Made by a program: the position numbers and the translations under genes. Of a stretch of 64,000 nucleotides of DNA, positions 4,236 through 21,745 are shown piece by piece. Positions within the stretch are counted from its first letter, which is position 1. Every line of letters begins with the position of its first letter. The notes under the pieces are model-generated. The model had not been told where the DNA came from. It did no database searches and was given only the letters and a program-made list of their open reading frames with translations. This stretch comes from Candidatus Paceibacter sp. (GTDB lineage: Bacteria; Patescibacteriota; Minisyncoccia; UBA9983). Where the stretch lies: contig JABWAS010000005.1 of the NCBI GenBank assembly GCA_013360865.1, positions 507 through 64,506 of the forward strand, in the 5' to 3' direction.

Positions 4236-4772
4236 ATGAAAAACATCAAAGAAAAATACGAAAAGAACGCCGTTCCGGAGCTGAAGAAAAAATTCGGCTA
4301 TAAAAACATACTTGCCGTTCCCAAAATAAAGAAAGTGGTGGTCAGCGCCGGCGTCGGCTCCTACAAGGATGAAACAAAAAAAGAACTGACCGGAAAATCT
4401 TTGGCGACCATAACCGGGCAGAAGCCGCTCGTCAACAAAGCCAAGAAGTCAATCGCTTCCTTCAAGCTGAGGCAGGGGATGCCGATAGGCTACTCCGTCA
4501 CCCTGCGCGGCAATAGAATGTATGATTTTTTGGAGAAGCTTGTAAACGTGGCGGTGCCCAGAATCAGGGACTTCCGCGGGCTTGATCCGAAAGCGATAGA
4601 CCACAAAGGTTCGATGACGATAGGCTTCAAAGAGCACATCGCTTTTCCGGAAACAGCCGGGGAAGACGTGCGGTCGGCGTTCGGGCTGGGAGTAACGGTG
4701 GTGTCCAGCGCCAAAAGCAAAGAAGAAGCGGCGGAATTATTTAAACTCGTAGGTTTTCCGTTTAAGGTATAA
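4236..4772 (+). CDS. rplE: 50S ribosomal protein L5
   Basis: [37 protein letters not shown] matches L5. Start chosen at the internal Met; the tracked ORF begins at 4218. Confidence 0.9.
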
Positions 4773-7233: not shown

Positions 7234-8488
7234 CAGAATAAAAATAATCCTGAAAGACAAAGAATTGCGCAAAAAGATTTTGTTCGTTCTTTTTATGCTC
7301 GCGCTGTTCAGAATCGGCTCCAACATCCCCCTTCCGGGAGTGGACCAGGAAAGGTTGAGCGCGTTTTTGTCCGGCAACCAGTTCTTCGGTTTGCTGGATG
7401 TTTTTTCCGGAGGAGGACTTTCCAATCTTTCCATACTAATGCTGGGCGTGGCGCCTTACATCACCGCTTCCATCATAATGCAGCTGTTTACCATGATTTT
7501 CCCCAAACTCAAAGCGTTGTATCAGGAGGAAGGGGAGGCGGGTAGACAGAAGTTCAACCAGTACTCCAGGCTGCTGGCGGTGCCGCTGGGATTTTTGCAG
7601 GGTTTTGGTCTTCTGGCGATGCTGCAGAATCAGGGCGTGCTTACCGGCCTTACTTTTATGGATAAATTTACCAATATTTCCGTGATGATAGCCGGCAGTA
7701 TGGTGTTGTTGTGGCTGGGCGAGCTTATTTCGGAAAAAGGCATAGGCAACGGAGTTTCGCTTATAATATTTGCCGGAATCGTGTCGTCTTTGCCGCAAAG
7801 CATCAGAAACGCGCTGTATACGTTTGACCCGTCCCAGTTGCCGATGTACGTCATGTTTTTGGCCGCCGCGTTCGCTGTAGTCGCCGGAGTGGTGTTTATA
7901 ACCGAGGCGGAAAGGCCGGTGCCCGTTTCTTACGCCAAGCAAGTAAGAGGCGCGCGAATGTATGGCGGAGGCTCAACCAGAATACCATTGAGAGTCAATC
8001 AGGCGGGTGTTATACCCATAATCTTTGCCATCTCCATACTTCTTTTCCCGCAGATGATCGTTAACATGTTGGCGGGGTTGGGCGGCGGACAGGTCGCGGC
8101 TTTGGCCGGGCAGGTGGTTAATTTCATCAACAGCCCCTGGGTTTACGGAACGCTTTATTTTATCCTGGTTTTCTTCTTCACTTATTTTTACACCGCCGTC
8201 ACTTTTGATCCGCACATGATTTCTGAAAATTTACAGAAGGGAGGCGCTTTCGTGCCGGGCATTCGGCCGGGTCGGCCGACGGCGGAATTTCTGGGCAGGA
8301 TAATCACCAGAATCACCCTTGTCGGCGCCGTGTTTCTGGGAATAATCGCCATCCTTCCATTGGCGGTGAAATCTTTGACGGGAATCGCGTCGCTGGCCAT
8401 AGGCGGCACCGCGTTGCTGATCGTGGTTTCCGTTGTTCTGGAAACGGCCAAACAGATAGAAGCCCAGGTGGTGATGAAGGAATACTAA
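7226..8488 (+). CDS. secY: preprotein translocase subunit SecY
   Basis: 420 aa polytopic membrane protein; SecY signature regions (GISLIIFAGIV, TRIPLRVNQAGVIPIIFA). Confidence 0.95.
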   Translation: MLNRIKIILKDKELRKKILFVLFMLALFRIGSNIPLPGVDQERLSAFLSGNQFFGLLDVFSGGGLSNLSILMLGVAPYITASIIMQLFTMIFPKLKALYQEEGEAGRQKFNQYSRLLAVPLGFLQGFGLLAMLQNQGVLTGLTFMDKFTNISVMIAGSMVLLWLGELISEKGIGNGVSLIIFAGIVSSLPQSIRNALYTFDPSQLPMYVMFLAAAFAVVAGVVFITEAERPVPVSYAKQVRGARMYGGGSTRIPLRVNQAGVIPIIFAISILLFPQMIVNMLAGLGGGQVAALAGQVVNFINSPWVYGTLYFILVFFFTYFYTAVTFDPHMISENLQKGGAFVPGIRPGRPTAEFLGRIITRITLVGAVFLGIIAILPLAVKSLTGIASLAIGGTALLIVVSVVLETAKQIEAQVVMKEY

Positions 8489-8665: not shown

Positions 8666-9040
8666 ATGACGAAACAAAATCAAATTTACAAATGCGAAGT
8701 TTGCGGCGGATTGCTGGAAGTGCTGGTTTCCGGCGGGGAAGACCTGATTTGTTGCGGAGAAAAAATGAAGCTGCTTGAAGAGAAAACCGAAGACGTCGGC
8801 AGAGAAAAGCACGTGCCGGTGATAGAAAAAACCGCCAACGGAATCAAGGTCAAAGTGGGCGCGGCTCCGCATCCTATGGAGGAAAAGCATTACATCCAGT
8901 TTATAGAGGTTATTTACAACGGCAGAAGCTATAAGAAGTTTTTGAAGCCGGGCGACAAACCGGAAGCGGAGTTTGAAGTTCCGGCCGAAGGCGTCGTCGC
9001 CAGGGAACATTGCAACATCCACGGGCTTTGGAAATCATAA
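8666..9040 (+). CDS. dfx: desulfoferrodoxin (2Fe superoxide reductase)
   Basis: N-terminal desulforedoxin Cys4 site (CEVCGG...LICCG). C-terminal neelaredoxin His4Cys ligands ([24 protein letters not shown]). 124 aa. Confidence 0.8.
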
Positions 9041-9634
9041 ATGAAAGAACCAAGAAATTTTCTTCTGATAGGCAGAGCCGGCTGCGGCAAAGGAACGCAG
9101 GCAGAATTACTTTTAAAGTACATGGAAAAGAATTGTTATGGAAAAACCTCGTACATTTACGTCGGCAGCGCCTTAAGGAGTTTTATTAACGATAACAATT
9201 CTTTAACTTCAAAATTAGCCGGCAAAATAATGGAAAAAGGGGACATGGAGCCAAGTTTTCTTGCCGTATGGGCGTTAGCCAATAATTTCATAGAAAAAAT
9301 AAACGAAAACGCGAATATTATAAGCGACGGTTTCCCAAGAAACTTGACGGAAGCAACTATCATTGATGAGGCTATTTTGTTTTACGACCTAAAAAACGTG
9401 TTTCCTGTTTTTATAGAAACAAGCCGAGATTGGTCAAAAGAAAAACTTTTGAAAAGAAAAAGAAACGACGACACGGAAGAAGCGATTAAAAGAAGGCTGG
9501 ATTATTTTGAAGAATTTGTAACACCAGTCATTGATTATTATCAAAATAAAAGTAAATATAAACTGGTAAGAGTGAACGGAGAACAGGGTATAGAAAAAGT
9601 CCACGAAGAAATTATAGACAAGTGTTTTAAATGA
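9041..9634 (+). CDS. adk: adenylate kinase (divergent P-loop GRAGCGKGTQ)
   Basis: DGFPRNLTEA (NMP-binding) and KRKRNDDTEEAIKRRL (lid/R-x-DD) motifs; position between secY region and map. AT-rich compared with neighbouring genes. Confidence 0.7.
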   Translation: MKEPRNFLLIGRAGCGKGTQAELLLKYMEKNCYGKTSYIYVGSALRSFINDNNSLTSKLAGKIMEKGDMEPSFLAVWALANNFIEKINENANIISDGFPRNLTEATIIDEAILFYDLKNVFPVFIETSRDWSKEKLLKRKRNDDTEEAIKRRLDYFEEFVTPVIDYYQNKSKYKLVRVNGEQGIEKVHEEIIDKCFK

Positions 9635-10395
9635 CAATTCTGGAATCGGAAAAGGACATAGCGGCTTTGAGGGAAGGAGGCAAAATACTTGCCTCCGTTT
9701 TAAACGAAGTCGCCAGAAGAGTCGCGCCCGGGGTTGCCGCGGCCGACTTGGACGCGTTGGCGGAAAAACTTATCAGAGAGGCGGGCGCCGAGCCGTCGTT
9801 TAAAAACTACAAAACTCCGGACGATAAAATTCCTTATCCGGCTTCGCTGTGCGTTTCCGTCAACGACGAAGTGGTGCACGGGATACCGGACCAAAAAATA
9901 TTCCAAGAGGGCGATGTTGTCGGGCTTGATTTGGGCTTAAAATACAAAGGCTTTTACACCGACTCCGCTGTAACGGCGCTTGCCGGAAAGGCCGACACGG
10001 AATCGCTAAGGCTGGTTGAGACGGCCAAAAAATCTCTGGCCAAAGGCATAAGTGTGGTAAAAGACGGGGCGAGGATAGGCGACATCGGATTTGCCGTGCA
10101 ATCCCGCGCCGAGAAAGACGGCTTCGGCGTGGTGAGAAAACTGGTCGGCCATGGCTTGGGGCGTAAAGTCCACGAAGGTCCGCAGGTGCCGAACTTCGGC
10201 TCCAGAGGCTCGGGGATGGCGCTGAAAAAAGGTCTGGTGCTGGCCATTGAGCCGATGATAACCGCCGGCGACTCGGATGTTTATCTGGACGACGATCTGT
10301 GGACGTGGAAAACAAAAGACCGTTCTTTGGCAGCCCATTTTGAGCATACGGTTATAGTCACCGAAAACGGGGCGGAAATAATAACCAAACTCTGA
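9631..10395 (+). CDS. map: type I methionine aminopeptidase
   Basis: 254 aa; conserved metal-ligand regions (DxVHGIP, GHGLGRKVHE, EHTVIVTENG). Confidence 0.9.
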   Translation: MTILESEKDIAALREGGKILASVLNEVARRVAPGVAAADLDALAEKLIREAGAEPSFKNYKTPDDKIPYPASLCVSVNDEVVHGIPDQKIFQEGDVVGLDLGLKYKGFYTDSAVTALAGKADTESLRLVETAKKSLAKGISVVKDGARIGDIGFAVQSRAEKDGFGVVRKLVGHGLGRKVHEGPQVPNFGSRGSGMALKKGLVLAIEPMITAGDSDVYLDDDLWTWKTKDRSLAAHFEHTVIVTENGAEIITKL

Positions 10396-14047: not shown

Positions 14048-14118
14048 GCCCTCGTAGTTCAAAGCCGACGCTCTGGTCGGCTCCCCGACAACAAAGTTCG
14101 TCGGGGTGGATAGAATAC
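14048..14118 (+). repeat. partial duplicate of tRNA-Arg 5' end (positions 1-15 plus D-loop GGATAGAA) interrupted by a 47-nt hairpin insert
   Basis: GCCCTCGTAGTTCAA at 14048-14062 and GGATAGAA at 14108-14115 match the tRNA at 14403-14475. Between them lies the hairpin CCGACG...CGTCGG. Confidence 0.7.
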
Positions 14119-14120
14119 CT

Positions 14121-14396
14121 ATGGATACAAGTAAAAATGGGTATGTTTATATACTGAAAGACAAAAATGGGAAATTTTATGTTGGAAGCACCGATAATTT
14201 AGATAGAAGGCTGAAGCAGCATAAAAATGGCCACACTCAAACAACTAGAAAGATGAATGATTTCATGTTAGTTTTAATGCAAAAGTATGAATCATTAGAT
14301 TTGGCGCGTAAAGTAGAAAGAAGAATTAAAGATCTAAAACGCAAAGATTATATTGAAAAAATAGTTAATGACGGGTATATCAATATAAAAATTTGA
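14121..14396 (+). CDS. small GIY-YIG nuclease family protein
   Basis: GYVYILKDKNGKFYVGSTDNLDRRLKQHKNG = GIY-YIG motif (GIY...YVG...R...QH). ATG at 14121; the track starts at an upstream GTG (14106). Confidence 0.75.
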   Translation: MDTSKNGYVYILKDKNGKFYVGSTDNLDRRLKQHKNGHTQTTRKMNDFMLVLMQKYESLDLARKVERRIKDLKRKDYIEKIVNDGYINIKI

Positions 14397-14402
14397 TGTT
14401 GC

Positions 14403-14475
14403 GCCCTCGTAGTTCAATGGATAGAACTGGAGACTTCTAATCTCCCGATCGAGGTTCGATTCCTCGCGAGGGCAC
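14403..14475 (+). tRNA. tRNA-Arg (anticodon TCT)
   Basis: Cloverleaf folds by hand: acceptor GCCCTCG/CGAGGGC, anticodon stem GGAGA/TCTCC with loop CTTCTAA, T-arm CGAGGTTCGATTCCTCG. Confidence 0.75.
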
Positions 14476-14539
14476 ATAGTAGTGAGACCTACCGAAAGGC
14501 CTCAGTAGAGCAATATTTCAGATGAGTCAAGACAAAAAA

Positions 14540-14566
14540 CCAGGTTCGAGTCCTGGTGGGTTTTTG
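14540..14566 (+). repeat. tRNA 3'-end-like fragment (T-arm CCAGGTTCGAGTCCTGG plus TGGGTTT)
   Basis: Perfect T-stem/loop with the GGTTCGAGTCC consensus, but no upstream tRNA body. Resembles an attachment-site remnant at the island border. Confidence 0.45.
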
Positions 14567-14780
14567 CTCGCAGTAATAAAAATTCTTTTTGTGTTTTCAG
14601 ATAAAGCAAATTCATAATCAAAAATTGCTTCTGATTTCAAACCCCATCCTCGGCGAAAAACAGTGTGTGGCAGTGCGCTAAAATTCCGAATTCGTTTGGA
14701 AAATTCGGAGAAATCAGTTGGGCACGATGTATTTAATTCTCTTTTGAAATGCAATCCTGTAACATACATAGGGCGATCTT

Positions 14781-14875
14781 GCATAAAGCACAATTTGTGT
14801 TAAAAGAACGATAGAAGAAATCCTGGTGGATTTCTGAAAATTGCACATTTACAACCCAAAAGGAGGTGAATTATG
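14781..14875 (+). repeat. left ~97-bp inverted repeat carrying 5'UTR hairpin, RBS (AAGGAGGTG) and ATG of the radical SAM gene
   Basis: Reverse complement of 20717-20815 is about 97% identical (2 substitutions, 2 single-nt indels). Contains hairpin GAAATCCTGGTGGATTTC. Confidence 0.85.
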
Positions 14876-16096
14876 GAATTCAAGAAGGAATACTTCGCGG
14901 TAGCCAATTCGGAACCACGTGTCACGATCAACGGTATGACTACGGGACGAGAATTTTCTGTGCGCGAATATACATTCGGAGTTCTTGTGCCGGATAGCAA
15001 TCATCCGCTCTCATGCGTCAGTGTGTCTAATAGCTCGCTGAGCATTGATTTGTGGATTGGATGTTCTTGGCAGTGCAGATACTGCCACGTTCAAGACACC
15101 AATCAAGATCTTGCCGATCAGGGCATGATGCCGAAAAAACCACGACGGCGCAATCAGTTTACCGTGGACCAAATCCTCGATGAACTGGTCAAGCATCCGT
15201 TCTTCATCGCTGATGAGACAATCATCAGCATCGGAACGGCAAGCACCGAGCCATTCGCCCCTGCTGTCGTAGACAGCACGTTCGAGATTATGGACGGATT
15301 CGTCCGGCGCGGTCTGCGGAATCCTTTCTGGATCGTCACTAAGGGTGGCGTTCCTAAAGGGAGAAAACTTGACTTCGCCCGCATCTCGAATGCGACGCGC
15401 GGCTTGATGCTGTCGCTGTGCTGGGCAGACAATCCTGACACGATTGAGCCAGCGCATAACAACCGCTTTCTCAATGCTGAGGAAGCCAAGGAAGCAGGAG
15501 CCACCATTGCGTGGTACATGCGACCGATCGTTCCTGAGTGGAGCGGTAATCGGGACAGAATTGAGATGATGATGCTGTGGGTGAAAAAACACTACGGCGA
15601 AGTCATCGATATGATCGTTCCGGGTGGTCTGCGCTGGACGGAAGGTATCGAGAACGGACTGGCGGAGATTCACAAGCTCCCCATGCCTGACATCCCTCGG
15701 GATGACAATGTGAAATCGTTGCCGCAGGAGTTGGTGGATTCCATCTTCTCACTGAGCGCCGAACACTTTCCTGGTATCCCCGTCTATCTCAAGTCATCAT
15801 GCGCCCTTACTCGGATGCTCAGGATCCCGAGCATCACTTCAGTGCAGGTTTTCGCACGGCCAGGATGCGAGGCATCTCGCTGTCCTCTGACCCAACGGAG
15901 AATCTGCGCTCAGGGTTCGGCTTACAACATGACGGCCGAACGAGTACAGGGCATCTTGGATGACCTCGGGATTCCGGCTCATGTAGTGAGTTGGGATATC
16001 AACCACGGACTTGTTACTCACCCCGAGATGAGCAAGTTCACCTACGCAGTCAGGCAGACTGTATTCAAACATCTGGCAATGGGAGGTCCCACATGA
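14873..16096 (+). CDS. radical SAM protein, SplB/COG1533-like
   Basis: CX3CX2C motif in context IGCSWQCRYCHV near the N-terminus. 407 aa; more GC-rich (by eye) than the flanking genome. Stop overlaps the next ATG (ATGA). Confidence 0.65.
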   Translation: MEFKKEYFAVANSEPRVTINGMTTGREFSVREYTFGVLVPDSNHPLSCVSVSNSSLSIDLWIGCSWQCRYCHVQDTNQDLADQGMMPKKPRRRNQFTVDQILDELVKHPFFIADETIISIGTASTEPFAPAVVDSTFEIMDGFVRRGLRNPFWIVTKGGVPKGRKLDFARISNATRGLMLSLCWADNPDTIEPAHNNRFLNAEEAKEAGATIAWYMRPIVPEWSGNRDRIEMMMLWVKKHYGEVIDMIVPGGLRWTEGIENGLAEIHKLPMPDIPRDDNVKSLPQELVDSIFSLSAEHFPGIPVYLKSSCALTRMLRIPSITSVQVFARPGCEASRCPLTQRRICAQGSAYNMTAERVQGILDDLGIPAHVVSWDINHGLVTHPEMSKFTYAVRQTVFKHLAMGGPT

Positions 16097-17211
16097 AGAC
16101 GTATGATGAAATCAAACGCCACTTCGGGACCTTTGGTTTCCAGTGGCAAGAAAGTGTTCCGATTGTAAGCACCAATCCTAAGCTCCTGTTCAACATCTCT
16201 GGCGGTGTCGTGTTTGAGGATACGATCTCTCATGGAGTAATCCCTGAAAAGACCCGTGTCGTTTCGGTTCAGACATGCCTGCGAACGGACGGGTGGGAGA
16301 AGATTGGTTTGTCGGGAAGGCACCACCTTGCATTCGACATGCTCGGCCACTTCTCCCTCTACGAGGGCAAGGAGCAAGAGGTTAAGGAAGCAATAATCGA
16401 GAGTGCCTGGCGTTATCTGACGGTGTGTGTGGGGATCAGTCCTGCCACGCTGTCAGCAACAGTGCATCCGCAAGATGCAACATCGCAGAGAATCTGGGAA
16501 AGGTTGGGTGCCAAAACTGTCAGCAATGACGGAAATGTCACTTTTACTCCGACTCGGAACCGATGCGGTGTTCGCACGGAGATCGTCTGGAGAAATCCGG
16601 ACACGAGTAAGTCAATCGAGCTTTGGAACTTGGTCTTTACCGAGTTTCTGGGCGAGACGCTTTTCGAGTCTCCTCTGGAGAAGATTGCCGCCGATTCTGG
16701 TGCAAGTATTGATCGTATCGTCACGGCAGTCGAATGCTGTAGTAGCGATTATGAAAACACCAATTGGAAAGGCGTGATCGAATCTATCAGTGAGCGATCC
16801 GAGGTAAAGGATCGAGCCATCATGTGCCGCCTCGCAGATCTCGGCAAAGCGGCGGTGCTTCTGGTATCGCAAGGACTTCGACCTGGAAACAAAGCGGCGG
16901 ATTATGTCCTTCGGAAACTCATCCGAGAGGCTTTCATCCTCTGCCGACAGATCTCCATCTCATTTGATGAATTTGTCGTGATATCAGGAAATCAATGGGC
17001 CTCGGTTGATGCGGTGCAAACTGTGTTTGCCGAGGAGGTGTCAAAGTTCGAGAAAGGGCTTGAGCGCGGGAGAAAGGAATATACAAAATTCGTCTCTCGC
17101 AGGAATGGTCGCTTGACTGAATCAGACATCAAGTATCTAACATCCACATTCGGATTTCCGAAGGCTCTTATCGAGCTTGAGGAGTCGAAACGGAACAAGG
17201 AGGCACTATGA
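16093..17211 (+). CDS. alanyl-tRNA synthetase catalytic-domain paralog 1 (truncated, no editing/C-Ala domains)
   Basis: NPKLLFNISGGVVFED, VQTCLRTDGWEKIGLSGRHHLAFDMLGHFSLYEG and C-terminal TSTFGFPKALIE parallel AlaRS class II catalytic-core motifs. ATGA overlap with upstream rSAM gene and downstream ORF. Confidence 0.6.
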   Translation: MKTYDEIKRHFGTFGFQWQESVPIVSTNPKLLFNISGGVVFEDTISHGVIPEKTRVVSVQTCLRTDGWEKIGLSGRHHLAFDMLGHFSLYEGKEQEVKEAIIESAWRYLTVCVGISPATLSATVHPQDATSQRIWERLGAKTVSNDGNVTFTPTRNRCGVRTEIVWRNPDTSKSIELWNLVFTEFLGETLFESPLEKIAADSGASIDRIVTAVECCSSDYENTNWKGVIESISERSEVKDRAIMCRLADLGKAAVLLVSQGLRPGNKAADYVLRKLIREAFILCRQISISFDEFVVISGNQWASVDAVQTVFAEEVSKFEKGLERGRKEYTKFVSRRNGRLTESDIKYLTSTFGFPKALIELEESKRNKEAL

Positions 17212-17963
17212 AAAATAGTTTAGTCTCCAATCTGACTCACGTACTTTGTGAGTTACAAGGCATGAGAGTGCTCTTGCACGTCGGACTGAAGAGGAACTCC
17301 CCCAAAGGCAAGATCGATCTTTTGGCGGGCTGCGACGACGGGGGTATTGAAAAATATTCCCCTCTCATCAAGGCTTTGCTTGAGGATCGGTGGCCAACCG
17401 GAAACTTCTTTGTGTGCGATGACAGTGTTCGCTTTGATCTGCCGACAGGTTCTGGAGGTGTCGCAGTTTGCGACGCAGCCTTGCTTGTTCGGCAGGTTGA
17501 AGGGTGGATCGAGGGTAAGAATCTGGGTGGTCAACATCGCCCATGGGCTACAGGGTACTGGTTGCCAGAAGCGCTGTGCAGAGACTTGGCAACTGCCAAG
17601 ACCTTGTACGATGTTACGGATATCGGTGTCCGACTTAGGGAGCTACTAATTCCATACCCTGTTTCGCTCTCGGAATCTATCGTTGAGCTGTGTACTGATG
17701 AGATCAGGCAGAAACTCTCAATGCTTGAGAAGTTGCACGAAAATGCAACTATCGAACGGGAACTATGCCTATCGGATGTTACGGCCTCGATGGTTCGGCT
17801 CGCATTCGCGCGCAGTCGAAGATACTTCCGTGGATTCCGATCGCTTGAACAACAAGCGAAGCTCCTTGGGTTTTCGGACATGCTCATCTATGAACTCGCC
17901 CTGAAACTCTCAAAGAGAGAAAGGGTGGCGGATGTGGTGAGTGAAATCAAAAGGTTGCTCTAA
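17208..17963 (+). CDS. hypothetical protein, possible nucleotidyltransferase-fold (low confidence)
   Basis: 251 aa; Gly/Asp-rich N-terminal region (LLAGCDDGG, FFVCDDSVRFD) followed by a helical C-terminus. No firm motif assignment. Confidence 0.3.
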   Translation: MKNSLVSNLTHVLCELQGMRVLLHVGLKRNSPKGKIDLLAGCDDGGIEKYSPLIKALLEDRWPTGNFFVCDDSVRFDLPTGSGGVAVCDAALLVRQVEGWIEGKNLGGQHRPWATGYWLPEALCRDLATAKTLYDVTDIGVRLRELLIPYPVSLSESIVELCTDEIRQKLSMLEKLHENATIERELCLSDVTASMVRLAFARSRRYFRGFRSLEQQAKLLGFSDMLIYELALKLSKRERVADVVSEIKRLL

Positions 17964-17993
17964 CTGGAGGCATACGAAAGTGTGCCTCCTTTT

Positions 17994-18602
17994 TTATTCG
18001 ATGATAGTTTTCTCTCCATTTTCAATAAGAGCAGCCTGAGAATTGTTCAAACGCTCCACAGTGACTCTATTTTTTGCTTCAAAAGCCTTTGTTTCTTCTT
18101 CAATTTCTGGAGAATAGTGTGGCAATATAATAAAATTTGTTATTCCGAATCCTGTAAAATCTTCTAGACCAACTTCATTTTTATCTGCAGCAACTTCTCC
18201 TGCAATTTCGATTGACGGACCAATAATGATGCTTCCTGCACTTACGCCTATATATACTCCATTTCGTTTAAGGAGACTTTCGATTGATGCTTTAAAATTT
18301 GATTCTCGAGCAAATTTAAGAAGTTTGAAAGTATTGCCTCCGCAAACATAAATAACATCGTATTCAGCAAAGTCCTTATCGGGTTCGGTTTCTAGGTCTA
18401 TAAAATCAATACGTAAAAATCCCATTTCACTAAATTGTTTCTTGGCGAGTTGGGCGTATTTATTATTTTCTTTTTCTTCTGCAGCTGTCGTTACTATAGC
18501 AACGGCATAATTTTTATAATCAGAAAATAAGCCCTTGAACCTTTCGGTAACTGGCCCAGAAGAAAGTCCTGTTGATGTGAGAAATATAAAACCTTTACTC
18601 AT
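17994..18602 (-). CDS. peptidase S51 family protein (dipeptidase E / cyanophycinase-like)
   Basis: VCGGNTFKLL and GVSAGSII (Ser nucleophile) motifs typical of PepE/S51. Conspicuously AT-rich relative to the rest of the cassette. Confidence 0.65.
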   Translation of the reverse strand: MSKGFIFLTSTGLSSGPVTERFKGLFSDYKNYAVAIVTTAAEEKENNKYAQLAKKQFSEMGFLRIDFIDLETEPDKDFAEYDVIYVCGGNTFKLLKFARESNFKASIESLLKRNGVYIGVSAGSIIIGPSIEIAGEVAADKNEVGLEDFTGFGITNFIILPHYSPEIEEETKAFEAKNRVTVERLNNSQAALIENGEKTIIE

Positions 18603-18624
18603 GCCTTCATTCTATATGATTTTT

Positions 18625-18665
18625 GTAATTTTTTCAAAAAAATAACCCGCCTCGTGGTTTACACA
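18625..18665 (-). terminator. probable rho-independent terminator after AlaRS-like paralog 2 (minus strand)
   Basis: Minus-strand reading ACCCGTCTTGTGTAAACCACGAGGCGGGT followed by TATTTTTTTG. Confidence 0.4.
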
Positions 18666-18686
18666 AGACGGGTCAGTGTTTGTTGA

Positions 18687-19979
18687 TCACTTCTTCGGTC
18701 GGCGTGATACATCCCGATGTTCCTCGATGAGTTTGAGAAACTCAGCCTTCGGAAAAGGGACGCCGTGACGAGCACAGAATTCCTCCAGAAGGTCTTCGGG
18801 AATGCCCATGCCGGTTTTCAAAGTGAATGCGTGTTGTGCATCCAACTCCTTGGCCGCGACGATCTTGTCGAGATACTTTCTGCTGCGATGCATCAGCTTT
18901 TCGAAGCCTTCACGCTCCTCGCTGAGCCAGTGTGCGATAACAGATTTCTGACGAAAGGTCATGTCCTTGTTATCGATCACTTCACTGAGAGAGTCTGCCC
19001 ATTCTTGAAGAATAGTCAGATTGATCCCTCGCAGGAAGATGCCGATCATCGCTCGCCGAAGCGCGCGACGGAGAAGGTATCCCTCCCGAGTATTGCTCGG
19101 AACAATACCCTCTCGAATCATCAGGATTGAGGTCTTGATGTGGTCGAGAATGACCCTTGTCCATGCTGTATCACCAATCCGCTGATTGATGAGTTGATAG
19201 GACGGGTCGTACTGATCGATCTCGTGGATTGAAGCGCGGTCTTGCAGGATCATGGCGAAGCGCTCAAGACCTGCGCCCGTATCCACACACTTCATCGGGA
19301 GAGGGGAAAAAAATCCCTGCTCGTCTTTGTAGTATTGCATGAACACTCCGGCATTCCAGATCTCGATATGCCGCCCAGGTACCAGCACGTCGTCCGTTTC
19401 TTTCTCGGCGAATTCCTCGCCTCGATCGAAGAAAACCTCCGTGCAGGGACCGCATGGGCCACTGGTTCCCGCCGGACCCCAGAAGTTGTCTACTGGCGGT
19501 CGGCCAATGATTCGATCTCGTGGCAGGAATTTCTCCCAGATGCGAGCCGATTCTTCGTCGCTTGGCACACCCGGCAGACTTTCGTCAGCCATGAATACCG
19601 TAGCAGAGAGGCGGTCGACTGGAATCCCGAAACCCTCGGTGATGAGTTCAAAGGCGAGTTCGATAGCTCGTTCCTTAAAATAATCTCCGAATGACCACGA
19701 CCCCATCATACGGAAGTTTGTTCCGTGATAGGAATCGCCGACGCTTTCGACGTCCACGAACCTGATACAGTCCTGCATGTTCGTCAGACGCGGGTATGGA
19801 GGCTTCGCCTGGCCCGTGAAGCAGGGCTTGAGCGGAGCCATGCCCGAGTTGATGAACATGAGGGTCGGATCATTCCTTGGAATAATCCCAGACGGCTGGA
19901 TGAATTGATGATCGTGGTTGAGGAAATGTTCCAGAAATGTCTGGCGTACCTCCTCGGTGGTTTTGTACGGTGGTGTCAC
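18687..19979 (-). CDS. alanyl-tRNA synthetase catalytic-domain paralog 2 (truncated, 430 aa)
   Basis: RNDPTLMFINSGMAPLKP, WSFGDYFKERAIELAFE, GPCGPCTEVFFDRGEE, IEIWNAGVFMQYY and TGAGLERFAMILQ reproduce the AlaRS aminoacylation-core motifs. Lacks editing and C-Ala domains. Confidence 0.75.
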   Translation of the reverse strand: MTPPYKTTEEVRQTFLEHFLNHDHQFIQPSGIIPRNDPTLMFINSGMAPLKPCFTGQAKPPYPRLTNMQDCIRFVDVESVGDSYHGTNFRMMGSWSFGDYFKERAIELAFELITEGFGIPVDRLSATVFMADESLPGVPSDEESARIWEKFLPRDRIIGRPPVDNFWGPAGTSGPCGPCTEVFFDRGEEFAEKETDDVLVPGRHIEIWNAGVFMQYYKDEQGFFSPLPMKCVDTGAGLERFAMILQDRASIHEIDQYDPSYQLINQRIGDTAWTRVILDHIKTSILMIREGIVPSNTREGYLLRRALRRAMIGIFLRGINLTILQEWADSLSEVIDNKDMTFRQKSVIAHWLSEEREGFEKLMHRSRKYLDKIVAAKELDAQHAFTLKTGMGIPEDLLEEFCARHGVPFPKAEFLKLIEEHRDVSRRPKK

Positions 19980-19981
19980 TG

Positions 19982-20719
19982 TTAGCCTCCTTTTTTGAGA
20001 TAGTGAATGTTTTGTGTTATCTGATCTTCTGTTGTCATACCAATAACAACAGATGTGCCGAGAGTAAGTGCGTTTTGTGTAATCATCTCGGCCGAGTGCG
20101 GGCCAGTGAGCAACTTCCCCTGTTTAAACAAACTTCTCAAGAGAATCTCCTTTTTAAGATCGAGTAGATATGGGAGCTGTTGAAGCACCCAAGTTTGCTC
20201 AGTGTTGAAAGGAGCCGCAATCACGTCGATGTGCGACAAAACCGTTTCAGCGACGGAACATGAGAAATTGTCGGGCAGGGAAATTCCTACGCGCTTGACT
20301 ATGCCTTCATACTTAAGCCCGTTAAGGCATTCAAGGATTGCTATTGATTCTGACGACCACGTGGGTAGCCAGTTGTGCAGAAGTACCGCGTCGATAGAAG
20401 ATCGCCGTAGCCTTTCCAATGATTCGTACACGCTTTGATAGATACCATCTCGTGAGTAGAATCTTTGGATCAGTTCAGGTGCTTCCAGATTCGGTTTTGA
20501 TGCTGCCGGAATTTTGGTCACAATGACCGCATCTTCCGGTAGACATGTACCAAGCATCTCCTCGACTTTGCCTCCACCATAGACGGCCGCCGTATCGAAA
20601 CGACGAATACCGGAGCTGATGGCGAAAAGCAGAAGCGATTCAATGTAGGCGGGGGACAAGTTTTTGAACTGCCCTCCAAGTTGCCACGTACCGAAGTAGA
20701 GGCGATTAAACCATGCCAT
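19982..20719 (-). CDS. aldo/keto reductase family oxidoreductase
   Basis: FGTWQLGG and FDTAAVYGGGKVEEMLG motifs; 245 aa. Start codon lies inside the right inverted repeat. 2-nt gap to the downstream AlaRS-like gene. Confidence 0.7.
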   Translation of the reverse strand: MAWFNRLYFGTWQLGGQFKNLSPAYIESLLLFAISSGIRRFDTAAVYGGGKVEEMLGTCLPEDAVIVTKIPAASKPNLEAPELIQRFYSRDGIYQSVYESLERLRRSSIDAVLLHNWLPTWSSESIAILECLNGLKYEGIVKRVGISLPDNFSCSVAETVLSHIDVIAAPFNTEQTWVLQQLPYLLDLKKEILLRSLFKQGKLLTGPHSAEMITQNALTLGTSVVIGMTTEDQITQNIHYLKKGG

Positions 20720-20815
20720 AATTCACCTCCTTTTGGGGTTGTAAATGTGCAATTTTCAGAAATCCACCAGGATTTCTTCTATTGTTCTTTTAACACAAAT
20801 TTGTACTTTATGCAA
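20717..20815 (-). repeat. right ~97-bp inverted repeat carrying RBS and ATG of the aldo/keto reductase gene
   Basis: Reverse complement matches 14781-14875 at about 97% identity. Confidence 0.85.
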
Positions 20816-20837
20816 GATTGCACACTTGGGCCGACAG

Positions 20838-21296
20838 ATGGAGTCTGTCCTAACTAAGCAAGTAGGTGATGCCTTCAGAGAGTTTATTTCTAAAGAAGGT
20901 ATCTCATATGAAACCACTGGAGATGCCACGCTGGGTGACGAGAACATAATTCATGCGCACTGGTCGTGTGTTATTGGCGGAAAATTCGGTCCATCCGTCA
21001 CGCTTTATAGCTTGGTCATGTGGGGAAAATCACTTTCGGAATATCTTGACGATCGAAAGAACGACCCCGAGTTGCCAAATGCAAAAGTCACGGATTTGAA
21101 GTTTTCTATGCACAATACCAGTGGGGGTATAAAAATTGTATTGAATCAGGGGCAGTCCGAAAAACTTTTATCAAGGATTGAGGAGGAGATAAAGAAAAAT
21201 AAGGAGCTTGAGGAATATAGGAAGAAATGGCAAGAACTCTACCACAACGGCTCACTCCTTATTGGGAAGATAGATTCTTGGCTTTCTTCAGAATAA
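20838..21296 (+). CDS. hypothetical protein
   Basis: ~152 aa ORF (internal Met of tracked ORF 20745-21296) immediately outside the right inverted repeat; no recognisable motif. Confidence 0.4.
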   Translation: MESVLTKQVGDAFREFISKEGISYETTGDATLGDENIIHAHWSCVIGGKFGPSVTLYSLVMWGKSLSEYLDDRKNDPELPNAKVTDLKFSMHNTSGGIKIVLNQGQSEKLLSRIEEEIKKNKELEEYRKKWQELYHNGSLLIGKIDSWLSSE

Positions 21297-21298
21297 AT

Positions 21299-21745
21299 AT
21301 GGAAGAAAATATCATTATTGAAAAAATAGAATGCGTGGTGCGCGATTCCGCAACCGAACAAATCGACCACCTAAGAAGGGGTCGGGTTGAACGTAATTTT
21401 ACGACATACTTGGCAAATAAACTTAAACCAATTTTTGAGGATGGAACTATTACTGTTGACCCCTTTTATAACAGGCATGGGGATGCGGCGAAAAGATTGA
21501 ACGGCAGTTTGATTGAACTTGATATCGCGATTCATGAACAAGGGGTTGATCACAATAATCTAGTCGCCATTGAACTCGAAACTAACAATAAGCCGACACG
21601 TGATGATCTGTGGAAAATAGAAAGACTGACCAAAGAACTTGATGGCTATGGTTACAAGCTCGGGTTATTTGTGGTCTCTGGAATAAATGATAAGGCTGGA
21701 GAAGTTATCGCGATGGAGTGGTATAAAAATGGTAAACCTTTGTAA
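21299..21745 (+). CDS. hypothetical protein
   Basis: ~148 aa; starts 2 nt after the previous stop; no recognisable motif. Confidence 0.4.
   Translation: MEENIIIEKIECVVRDSATEQIDHLRRGRVERNFTTYLANKLKPIFEDGTITVDPFYNRHGDAAKRLNGSLIELDIAIHEQGVDHNNLVAIELETNNKPTRDDLWKIERLTKELDGYGYKLGLFVVSGINDKAGEVIAMEWYKNGKPL

Follow-up and report, generated by a model that had tools for sequence, protein, structure and literature searches.

The closest described relatives of the element reported here are found among inverted duplicates and among structured mRNA leaders. The inverted duplicates tufA and tufB of Salmonella and E. coli are reportedly homogenised by RecA-dependent gene conversion, with occasional inversion, and the inverted repeats of chloroplast genomes are copy-corrected by recombination, their flip-flop inversion being neutral for expression. 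In the invertible switches hin/hix, gin/gix and fimS and in the invertons of Bacteroides the repeats are recombinase sites of 14-30 bp, and the flip toggles a gene. Stem-loops at the 5' terminus serve as stabilisers of the ompA, B. subtilis aprE and ermC mRNAs. Our subject is a pair of mirrored repeat arms in a 64-kb stretch of contig JABWAS010000005.1 (hereafter the window) from Candidatus Paceibacter sp., a bacterium that is uncultured and ultra-small. The arms enclose six genes arranged as two inward-facing, convergent operons (the cassette), of which the left one begins with a radical SAM gene and the right one with an aldo/keto reductase gene. They combine known kinds of arrangement, namely inverted duplicates under concerted evolution and duplicated control regions. 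From the sequence comparisons described below we consider it probable that they represent an old duplicated promoter-leader module, which co-expresses both halves of the cassette and has been kept alike by gene conversion and purifying selection.

As in tufA/tufB, there are two inverted copies on one replicon that resemble each other more closely within a genome than between genomes, and recombination between them can invert the intervening DNA. In contrast to the tuf genes, the repeated unit measures only ~105 nt (up to 435 nt in relatives) and consists of a promoter-like region, leader and start codon instead of a gene, and the copies are placed 5.9 kb apart on a mobile cassette, where they head two different operons. 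The arms share with the chloroplast repeats that inverted copies are held identical and that inversion of the DNA between them has no effect on expression, whereas the chloroplast repeats are organellar, kilobase-scale and contain rRNA operons. Like the repeats of invertible switches they flank a segment, and in relatives a serine recombinase gene adjoins them, but each arm holds a full inward promoter-to-ATG unit and the window is without a recombinase. The resemblance to the ompA, aprE and ermC leaders lies in a stable hairpin close to the predicted mRNA 5' end, which is conserved in its pairing and not in its loop sequence; unlike in simple stabilisers, one stem half (AGAAA) and a downstream box are conserved in sequence, and the start site here is a predicted one.

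The arms extend over positions 14773-14879 on the plus strand and 20713-20821 on the minus strand, ~105 nt each, and are ~95% identical. A repeat search of the window returned an inverted pair of 70 nt with 97% identity (14792-14861/20732-20801), adjoined by pairs of 25 nt with 96% (14855-14879/20713-20737) and of 24 nt with 88% (14773-14796/20798-20821). BLAST of the window against itself gave a single arm-arm alignment of 109 columns at 94.5%, and in the pairwise alignment identity is unbroken from just 5' of a -35-like TTGCAT, the outer limit, to ATGG plus 2 of the next 3 bases, the inner limit. The inverted repeat of ~97 bp that an earlier note had proposed from the letters alone is therefore real and reaches far beyond the region of ribosome-binding site (RBS) and ATG. 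Its count of 2 substitutions and 2 one-base indels is exact within the coordinates it gave (14781-14875 and 20717-20815); these lie inside the repeat, which continues ~8 nt further out and 4 nt further in. The arms are the sole two copies in the window, a core 30-mer occurring exactly twice in the 64 kb with 0 occurrences expected (100 shuffles). A covariance model of the leader matched the left arm at 14811-14876 with 91.7 bits and the right arm at 20716-20782 with 93.7 bits. The window is 99.8-99.96% identical to JAKLKK010000005.1 from the Candidatus Pacebacteria metagenome-assembled genome (MAG) GCA_023150695.1. The repeat is not an assembly artefact, because the same arms were assembled through in independent NCBI, JGI and ENA contigs (L004, L006, L048, L049, L060 and L063-L065). 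L-numbers here and below denote related loci, which were obtained from a genome scan (35 loci), from a metagenome scan for the leader pattern (11 loci) and by exact-protein look-ups.

Both copies show the same order of elements: TTGCAT, 16-17 nt, TGnTAAAAG, a stem-loop, an A-rich linker, a conserved box, the RBS and ATGG. Read from the sequence, the left promoter-like core covers 14779-14806 on the plus strand, with TTGCAT at 14779-14784, a 16-nt spacer ending with TG at 14798-14799 and TAAAAG at 14801-14806. Its counterpart on the minus strand (20787-20815) has TTGCAT at 20815-20810, a 17-nt spacer and TAAAAG at 20792-20787. Of the features of a sigma-70-type promoter with an extended -10 element, the spacing and the placement of TG agree, the hexamers only in part. 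The bases TTG, TG and TA are invariant across 14 leaders, the spacer of the promoter varies freely, and in L003 a perfect TATAAT occupies the predicted -10 position. The leader is ~65 nt long, and the stem-loop P1 starts ~9 nt past TAAAAG. P1 in the left leader (14816-14835, plus strand) is formed by AGAAATCC-TGGT-GGATTTCT with 8 bp and was present in every predicted fold; in the right leader (20758-20777, minus strand) it emerged from the predicted folds, the terminator/hairpin scan and covariation. Both arms thus contain the hairpin GAAATCC-TGGT-GGATTTC. The box ACATTTACAAC lies at 14845-14855 on the plus strand and at 20748-20738 on the minus strand and is invariant, as is ACATTTAC in 14/14 leaders. 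It is followed in both arms by a strong RBS, AAGGAGGTG, by four bases and by ATGG; by sequence reading, RBS, spacer and ATG of the radical SAM gene occupy 14860-14875 (plus strand), and the equivalent of the aldo/keto reductase gene 20732-20717 (minus strand). All that the earlier note had placed in the arms (a hairpin, a Shine-Dalgarno sequence and the ATG of an inward-facing gene) was found in both, and its claim of identical leaders for both operons holds, with promoter-like region, leader, RBS and start codon common to the two.

Three other readings of the arm sequence were rejected. A promoter of the form TTTACA-16-AATTAT, listed by a consensus promoter scan inside the right arm, has a different spacing in the left arm, its "-10" is not kept elsewhere (GAGTTAT, GGGTTAT) and initiation from it would fall within the gene. 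The palindrome CACAA(A)TTTGTG in the promoter spacer was considered as an operator, and it is not conserved in L004, L006 and L049. An antisense open reading frame (ORF) that starts at the box (MCNFQKSTRISS...) varies in length and frame between loci and was treated as non-coding.

The leader is conserved well beyond neutral sites. It is 89% identical between loci; the fourfold sites in the neighbouring radical SAM gene reach 67% and the promoter core reaches 74%. In comparison with L048, fourfold sites are 40-52% and the leader 89-94% identical. In L004, where the two arms have drifted to 87.5% identity, both retain every leader and promoter feature, and the stretch from box to ATG is identical. 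P1 was 100% paired in 16 distinct leaders, so that the search for a conserved structure in homologous cassettes, suggested for the 60-nt leader in the earlier note, gave a positive answer in 16/16 distinct sequences. In the alignment fitted to the covariance model, compensatory double changes occur in 4/8 pairs, and the values for pairing and covariation were reached in 0/500 shuffles; a MAFFT alignment that was not model-fitted retained compensatory changes in 2/8 pairs. One-sided changes in P1 are all compatible with G-U wobble pairing, and the loop varies in length (4-5 nt) and in sequence. Because of the compensatory changes in half of the pairs, and because stem changes are wobble-compatible and the loop varies, these patterns favour an element acting at the level of RNA over a protein operator in the DNA. 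The sequence conservation of the 5' stem half (AGAAA) and of the downstream box exceeds what a simple stabiliser would need, a hint that some specific partner recognises them. The earlier note had proposed that one RNA- or DNA-binding factor may co-regulate the two operons; this is plausible, with the evidence leaning towards RNA. No Rfam family matched the window at gathering score, the arms giving only matches of E 1.5-3.8 to irrelevant families, and in L006 and L046 Rfam returned tRNAs only.

We propose that each arm acts as one complete expression module, made up of a promoter-like region and a 5' leader of ~65 nt. The leader RNA would carry the 8-bp stem-loop within a few bases of the predicted start, followed by the box ACAUUUACAAC, the RBS AAGGAGGUG and AUGG. 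The left copy would drive an operon for the radical SAM protein, an alanyl-tRNA synthetase (AlaRS)-like protein and a nucleotidyltransferase, the mirrored copy an operon for the reductase and a truncated AlaRS. Since each operon is headed by a copy of the same module, both halves of the cassette would be transcribed and translated under the same signals. The most likely place of action of the stem-loop is the RNA, where it would be either a stabiliser of the 5' end or a binding site for a factor.

The history of the module can be read in part from the gene starts. Where the repeat is absent, the radical SAM gene is preceded by an RBS of its own and opens with ATGAATTCC (Met-Asn-Ser); the opening of the reductase gene reads ATGGAATGG. 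Loci with arms have ATGGAATCC at the start of the radical SAM gene, which is a chimera of the reductase and radical SAM starts; all of these loci have ATGGAA or ATGAAA followed by radical SAM sequence, and this identity of the join makes an independent duplication in each lineage unlikely. In 25/35 genome loci the two genes are neighbours on one strand, the aldo/keto reductase gene directly preceding the radical SAM gene. Seven such colinear loci were read; 7/7 have a single leader upstream of the reductase gene, 6/7 with a TTTACAAC-type box, and in the six in which the radical SAM start was readable it has its own RBS and begins ATGA(A/G)T or ATGAAA (6/6). As the reductase-first colinear order prevails and has a single leader there, these data point to a leader that originally belonged to the reductase gene and of which the radical SAM gene once received a copy, joined in codon 2-3. 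The module would thus have stood first with the reductase gene, at the head of one operon in which the radical SAM gene came next, and the reductase leader would have been copied after the cassette had turned convergent, changing ATGAATTCC to ATGGAATCC. The convergent layout probably preceded the copying, since L017 is convergent without a repeat and with the ancestral radical SAM start, and L002 has the six-gene order of the window with two unrelated upstream regions. We also sought a single event that would derive the gene order of the window from the colinear order and found none.

The earlier note had offered recent duplication or gene conversion as reasons for the identity of the arms. 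A recent duplication does not agree with the data: all arm-bearing loci have the same chimeric junction, located in codon 2-3 of their radical SAM gene, and they include lineages with no more than 40-90% identity at fourfold sites, so the duplication is old. The better explanation is gene conversion. In a tree of the arms from the seven loci in which both are complete, the two arms of each locus are sister tips, and identity amounts to 87.5-100% within loci compared to a mean of 82.4% between loci (the 90.4% of L063, an artefact of a right arm truncated by the contig end, was excluded from the within-locus range). Since the arms are more alike within than between loci despite a single origin, they appear to be kept alike by gene conversion (concerted evolution). 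Arm-arm conversion would thus have maintained the copies since the duplication, with purifying selection preserving the leader.

Several points weigh against a shared promoter-leader module. TTGCAT agrees with TTGACA at 3/6 positions and TAAAAG with TATAAT at 4/6, the final T missing; the proposed arm promoter was not listed by the consensus promoter scan of the window, and start site and activity of either promoter are predictions. The covariation in P1 comes from a sample of ~16 closely related sequences. A second helix, AUUUAC/GUGAAU, in which bases after the RBS would pair, shows essentially one-sided wobble changes and one double change in one sequence; it is compatible with the data as a weak possibility. 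Identical leaders are evidently not essential for the cassette, because L002 has the same gene order with unrelated upstream regions. Finally, recombination between repeats so close to each other could keep the arms alike as a passive side effect, without selection for their identity.

Among the alternatives, the one that survives best, albeit as an unlikely one, is that the arms are mainly DNA recombination substrates, used to flip the cassette or to exchange its variable half, and that their promoter content merely makes such events harmless. Concerted evolution indicates that the arms do recombine. Three sets of synthetase paralogs are found inside the same arms, the halves of the cassette diverge unequally (window and L006 are 93% identical in the radical SAM protein and 67% in the reductase), the tree of the radical SAM proteins interleaves cassette architectures, and homology between genomes ends at the outer arm edges. 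The cassette also occurs in opposite orientations to the recombinase and tRNA-Leu genes, with the radical SAM side proximal in L046/L064 and the reductase side proximal in L006. This is the expected product of arm-arm inversion, yet the cargo of L006 and L046 differs, so they are not two states of one element and the orientations are not proof. Similarity breakpoints are found inside the cassette as well, e.g. where the radical SAM gene ends, and the strong constraint lies on the transcribed leader and its RNA pairing and not on the whole arm. Moreover, arm-arm inversion leaves expression unchanged and offers no obvious benefit. Inverted repeats do flank a segment, as in invertible switches, but no recombinase gene is near them in the window and orientation does not decide which gene is joined to a promoter, each arm being a full inward promoter-to-ATG unit. 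The arms are not an on/off switch: a crossover inside them rebuilds identical promoter-to-ATG units, so inversion cannot switch expression. Nor do they appear to fit a defined recombinase site, because their outer limit differs between lineages. Of the site for inversion or excision suggested in the earlier note, inversion thus finds some backing in the opposite orientations, which are seen between lineages, and would be neutral for expression; excision falls away, as recombination between inverted copies inverts a segment and does not excise it.

We regard it as improbable that the hairpin is a DNA operator, i.e. a palindrome bound by a dimeric repressor that closes both promoters together. 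AGAAATCC-N4-GGATTTCT is a perfect 8-bp palindrome just past the predicted start in both arms, a suitable position for a roadblock. However, what the G-U-compatible one-sided changes and the four two-sided pairs keep is the pairing and not the sequence of a half-site, the half-site spacing varies between 4 and 5 nt, L003 replaces three pairs outright, and no regulator gene was found in domain scans of the cassette genes.

Even less probable, in our view, is that the arms are terminal inverted repeats of a transposon- or cassette-like unit that is recognised by a transposase or site-specific recombinase. The earlier note had likewise listed the ends of a mobilisable module among its options. What speaks for such ends is that the homology of the window to L004, L005, L006, L048 and L049 runs from arm to arm and stops at the outer arm edges, that the cassette is found in unrelated genomic contexts, and that a large serine recombinase adjoins the arms in L006, L046 and L064. 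We read the arm-to-arm homology as erosion of everything that is not under selection, with exchange through the arms as an alternative. What does not fit is that the arms measure ~105 nt in the window and L004, at least 130 nt in L060 and 435 nt in L006, a range at odds with a defined recombination site, that the bases next to the arms (...ACATACATAGG at the end of the left flank, ACACTTGGGCC... at the start of the right one) form neither a direct repeat nor a target-site duplication, that no transposase was detected among the six cassette genes in Pfam, NCBIfam and PADLOC scans, and that the cassette of the window neither contains nor adjoins a recombinase or transposase gene. Colinear relatives with one leader copy occur in many contexts too, and searches of phage, plasmid and viral collections gave no match. 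The demonstrable mobile unit in L006 is a larger one, a serine-recombinase element whose ends are 42-nt direct repeats at a tRNA-Leu gene, well outside the arms.

That the repeat is a functionless, neutral and recent duplication or an assembly artefact hardly deserves consideration: short-read assemblies do break at the arms, and many contigs of ~5.9 kb end there, but several independent assemblies and lineages read through them, the chimeric junction is common to all arm-bearing loci, the leader is conserved well beyond neutral sites and the stem-loop has compensatory changes.

Regarding its surroundings, the cassette of L006 and L046/L064 is carried by an element of 8.5 kb that is located at tRNA-Leu, as is known from tRNA-associated elements with large serine recombinases. 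The recombinase comprises Resolvase, Recombinase and Zn-ribbon domains (gene at 16086-17621 in L006). In contrast to the usual elements of this kind, the recombinase gene is itself bordered on both sides by a 147-nt inverted repeat (L006 16086-17934, L046 1000-2860, L064 137-1997), the copies of which are 98-100% identical within a locus; one copy encodes the C-terminal ~45 residues of the recombinase. This segment too has opposite orientations to tRNA-Leu in L006 and L046. Just outside the left arm of the window (14539-14721) we found a fragment resembling a tRNA 3' end at 14539-14557 and, at 14578-14721, a match of 72% identity to the serine recombinase gene region of L046/L006, covering its repeat and the sequence upstream. 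The window retains only the vestige of this serine-recombinase element, from which the recombinase gene is gone; tblastn with the L046 recombinase found no recombinase gene in the 64 kb. A tRNA scan placed tRNA-Arg(TCT) just outside the left arm (14403-14475, plus strand), and relatives of the cassette likewise adjoin tRNA genes. This tRNA-Arg(TCT) gene is intact in the window, but in a sister MAG it is interrupted by 155 extra bases (L050 9397-9551, corresponding to window 14417-14424), which contain a second complete tRNA-Arg(TCT) with complementary GC-rich flanks, i.e. a tRNA gene nested in a tRNA gene. Immediately upstream of the bordering tRNA-Arg, 14106-14396 encodes a stand-alone GIY-YIG nuclease domain of 96 aa. 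Between the right arm and tRNA-Val(TAC) there are two small ORFs without a family (20838-21296 and 21299-21745), for which no DNA similarity or tblastn match was found in the related loci compared; the second has a weak match to the PADLOC model PD-Lambda-3_A (E 1e-4).

The first gene of the plus-strand operon (14873-16096) encodes a radical SAM protein of 407 aa. Its Pfam match is weak (Radical_SAM, E 0.0016), C64/C68/C71 of the CxxxCxxC motif are invariant, and the structure model (predicted local distance difference test, pLDDT, 87) has its best fold matches among radical SAM enzymes, with general resemblance only. It is followed by a diverged AlaRS-like protein of 372 aa comprising the catalytic region only (16093-17211, plus strand; tRNA-synt_2c, E 7e-43) and by a protein of 251 aa (17208-17963, plus strand) without a Pfam match, whose model (pLDDT 88) has the small-molecule nucleotidyltransferase fold of the ANT(4')/LinB type (Foldseek 6p01 ANT-4', E 7e-6, TM 0.57). 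Solved-structure sequence searches yielded nothing useful for the radical SAM or the 251-aa protein. A hairpin scan found a terminator-like hairpin with a T-run at the end of this operon (17966-17989, plus strand). On the minus strand, a Peptidase S51 of 202 aa (17994-18602; Peptidase_S51, E 7e-29) is probably a separate transcription unit, since it has its own promoter-like site at 18637-18609 in the consensus promoter scan. The reductase-AlaRS operon ends, by the hairpin scan, with a terminator-like hairpin at 18643-18675 (minus strand) and consists of the aldo/keto reductase of 245 aa (19982-20719, minus strand; Aldo_ket_red, E 7e-28) and a truncated AlaRS paralog of 430 aa (18687-19979, minus strand; tRNA-synt_2c, E 8e-103). 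The radical SAM and reductase assignments made in the earlier note are confirmed by these matches. The two AlaRS paralogs are 27% identical. The longer one has the catalytic and tRNA-recognition region and is without editing and C-Ala domains (TIGR00344 positions 1-429 of 847). The same domain reduction is seen in the mini-AlaRS of Tupanvirus, which retains the catalytic and tRNA-recognition parts without editing and C-Ala domains (PMC10036535); in contrast to the viral enzyme, the 430-aa paralog is bacterial, stands beside a second, far more diverged AlaRS-like gene, and its activity is putative. No PADLOC defence model matched any cassette gene, and we found nothing relevant in the literature on this gene combination or on mirrored promoters.

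Homologues of the radical SAM protein are common in metagenomes of the candidate phyla radiation (CPR, Patescibacteria), strikingly many of them on contigs of 5.7-6.3 kb. Short-read contigs stop inside the arms, and the contigs L001, L051 and L061 are the cassette itself, severed there by the assembler. Mirrored arms occur in at least 8 other metagenomic lineages, and both arms are present in L004, L005, L006, L048, L049, L060 and L063-L065. The family, compared at window 14873-20719, L006 12697-14929, L063 2786-4305 and L026 8485-13230, spans many CPR lineages and extends more distantly to Bacilli, Clostridia, Bacteroidales and one Rickettsiales MAG. Its constant frame consists of arm, radical SAM, nucleotidyltransferase-like gene, peptidase, synthetase paralog(s), reductase and arm. 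In the window, L004, L049 and L060 the synthetase cargo is a pair of AlaRS-like genes; L006 has two of the class II Asp/Lys/Asn type, and L063-L066 have a class I lysyl-tRNA synthetase (LysRS). In a Bacilli relative (L026) the peptidase belongs to the S66 (LD-carboxypeptidase) family, and the nucleotidyltransferase-like domain is fused to the reductase.

In the window and 750 kb of related DNA, the covariance model of the leader matched only cassette arms, L003 and L039. L003 9916-15080 is a decayed cassette with a split second AlaRS-like gene, a shortened version of the truncated AlaRS and a tRNA-Ala(UGC) gene in place of the reductase gene; the leader has persisted before the radical SAM gene, three of its stem pairs being exchanged. 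In L039 (9100-10894) the leader, with promoter-like region, a stem-loop containing two G-U pairs, the box ACATTTACAAC and the RBS, precedes unrelated genes for a Pol-beta-type nucleotidyltransferase and a PHP phosphoesterase, which adjoin tRNA-Leu and a candidate cytosine methyltransferase-like ORF, as read from its translation. The arms are extended by a conserved stretch of ~300 nt upstream in L006 (9573-9900 and 15770-16088), L046 (2858-3160) and L060 (3400-3620); a GC-rich hairpin (CCGCCCGCA...TGCGGGCGG) closes it, and the -35-like element follows immediately. This stretch was lost in the window and L004; as coding sequence it was rejected, since frames are not kept. L064 (4477-4920) and L065 (4452-4895) contain an IS200/IS605-type Y1 transposase gene between the nucleotidyltransferase-like and the peptidase genes, the cassette being otherwise identical. 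In L004, a Saccharibacteria MAG, five direct repeats of ~150 nt (4569-4654, 8253-8396, 9004-9157, 9686-9839 and 16933-17095) separate toxin-antitoxin-like genes from the cassette in a layout resembling a cassette array.

On one possible reading, the cassette would encode the synthesis of a compound that is amino-acid-specific and nucleotide-linked, and a resistant synthetase together with a peptidase would protect the producer, in which case the same control region on both operons would make sense. A bolder version, which we put forward tentatively and think rather unlikely, is that the ~65-nt leader is an undescribed cis-regulatory RNA that responds to a product or protein of the cassette and couples both operons. 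The cassette may then make a compound of this kind, e.g. a synthetase inhibitor, together with a resistant synthetase, and the arms would serve as portable homology for swapping the amino-acid-specific half (AlaRS pair, class II Asp/Lys/Asn pair or class I LysRS) between serine-recombinase elements of the CPR.

To our knowledge, regulatory sequences of the CPR are almost unknown, and the locus offers a defined, conserved promoter-leader unit from this group that is directly testable. It also provides a clean example from nature in which a regulatory region, not a gene, was mirror-duplicated and then copy-corrected across many lineages. On the practical side, the repeat explains why the cassette so often appears as isolated short-read contigs of ~5.9 kb, which matters for binning and for the annotation of genomic islands. 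The cargo may be the more valuable lead, a widespread and horizontally moving cassette with a constant part and a swapped aminoacyl-tRNA synthetase paralog. The undescribed leader motif and this family of synthetase-swapping cassettes are more promising leads than the repeat itself, which is of moderate interest.

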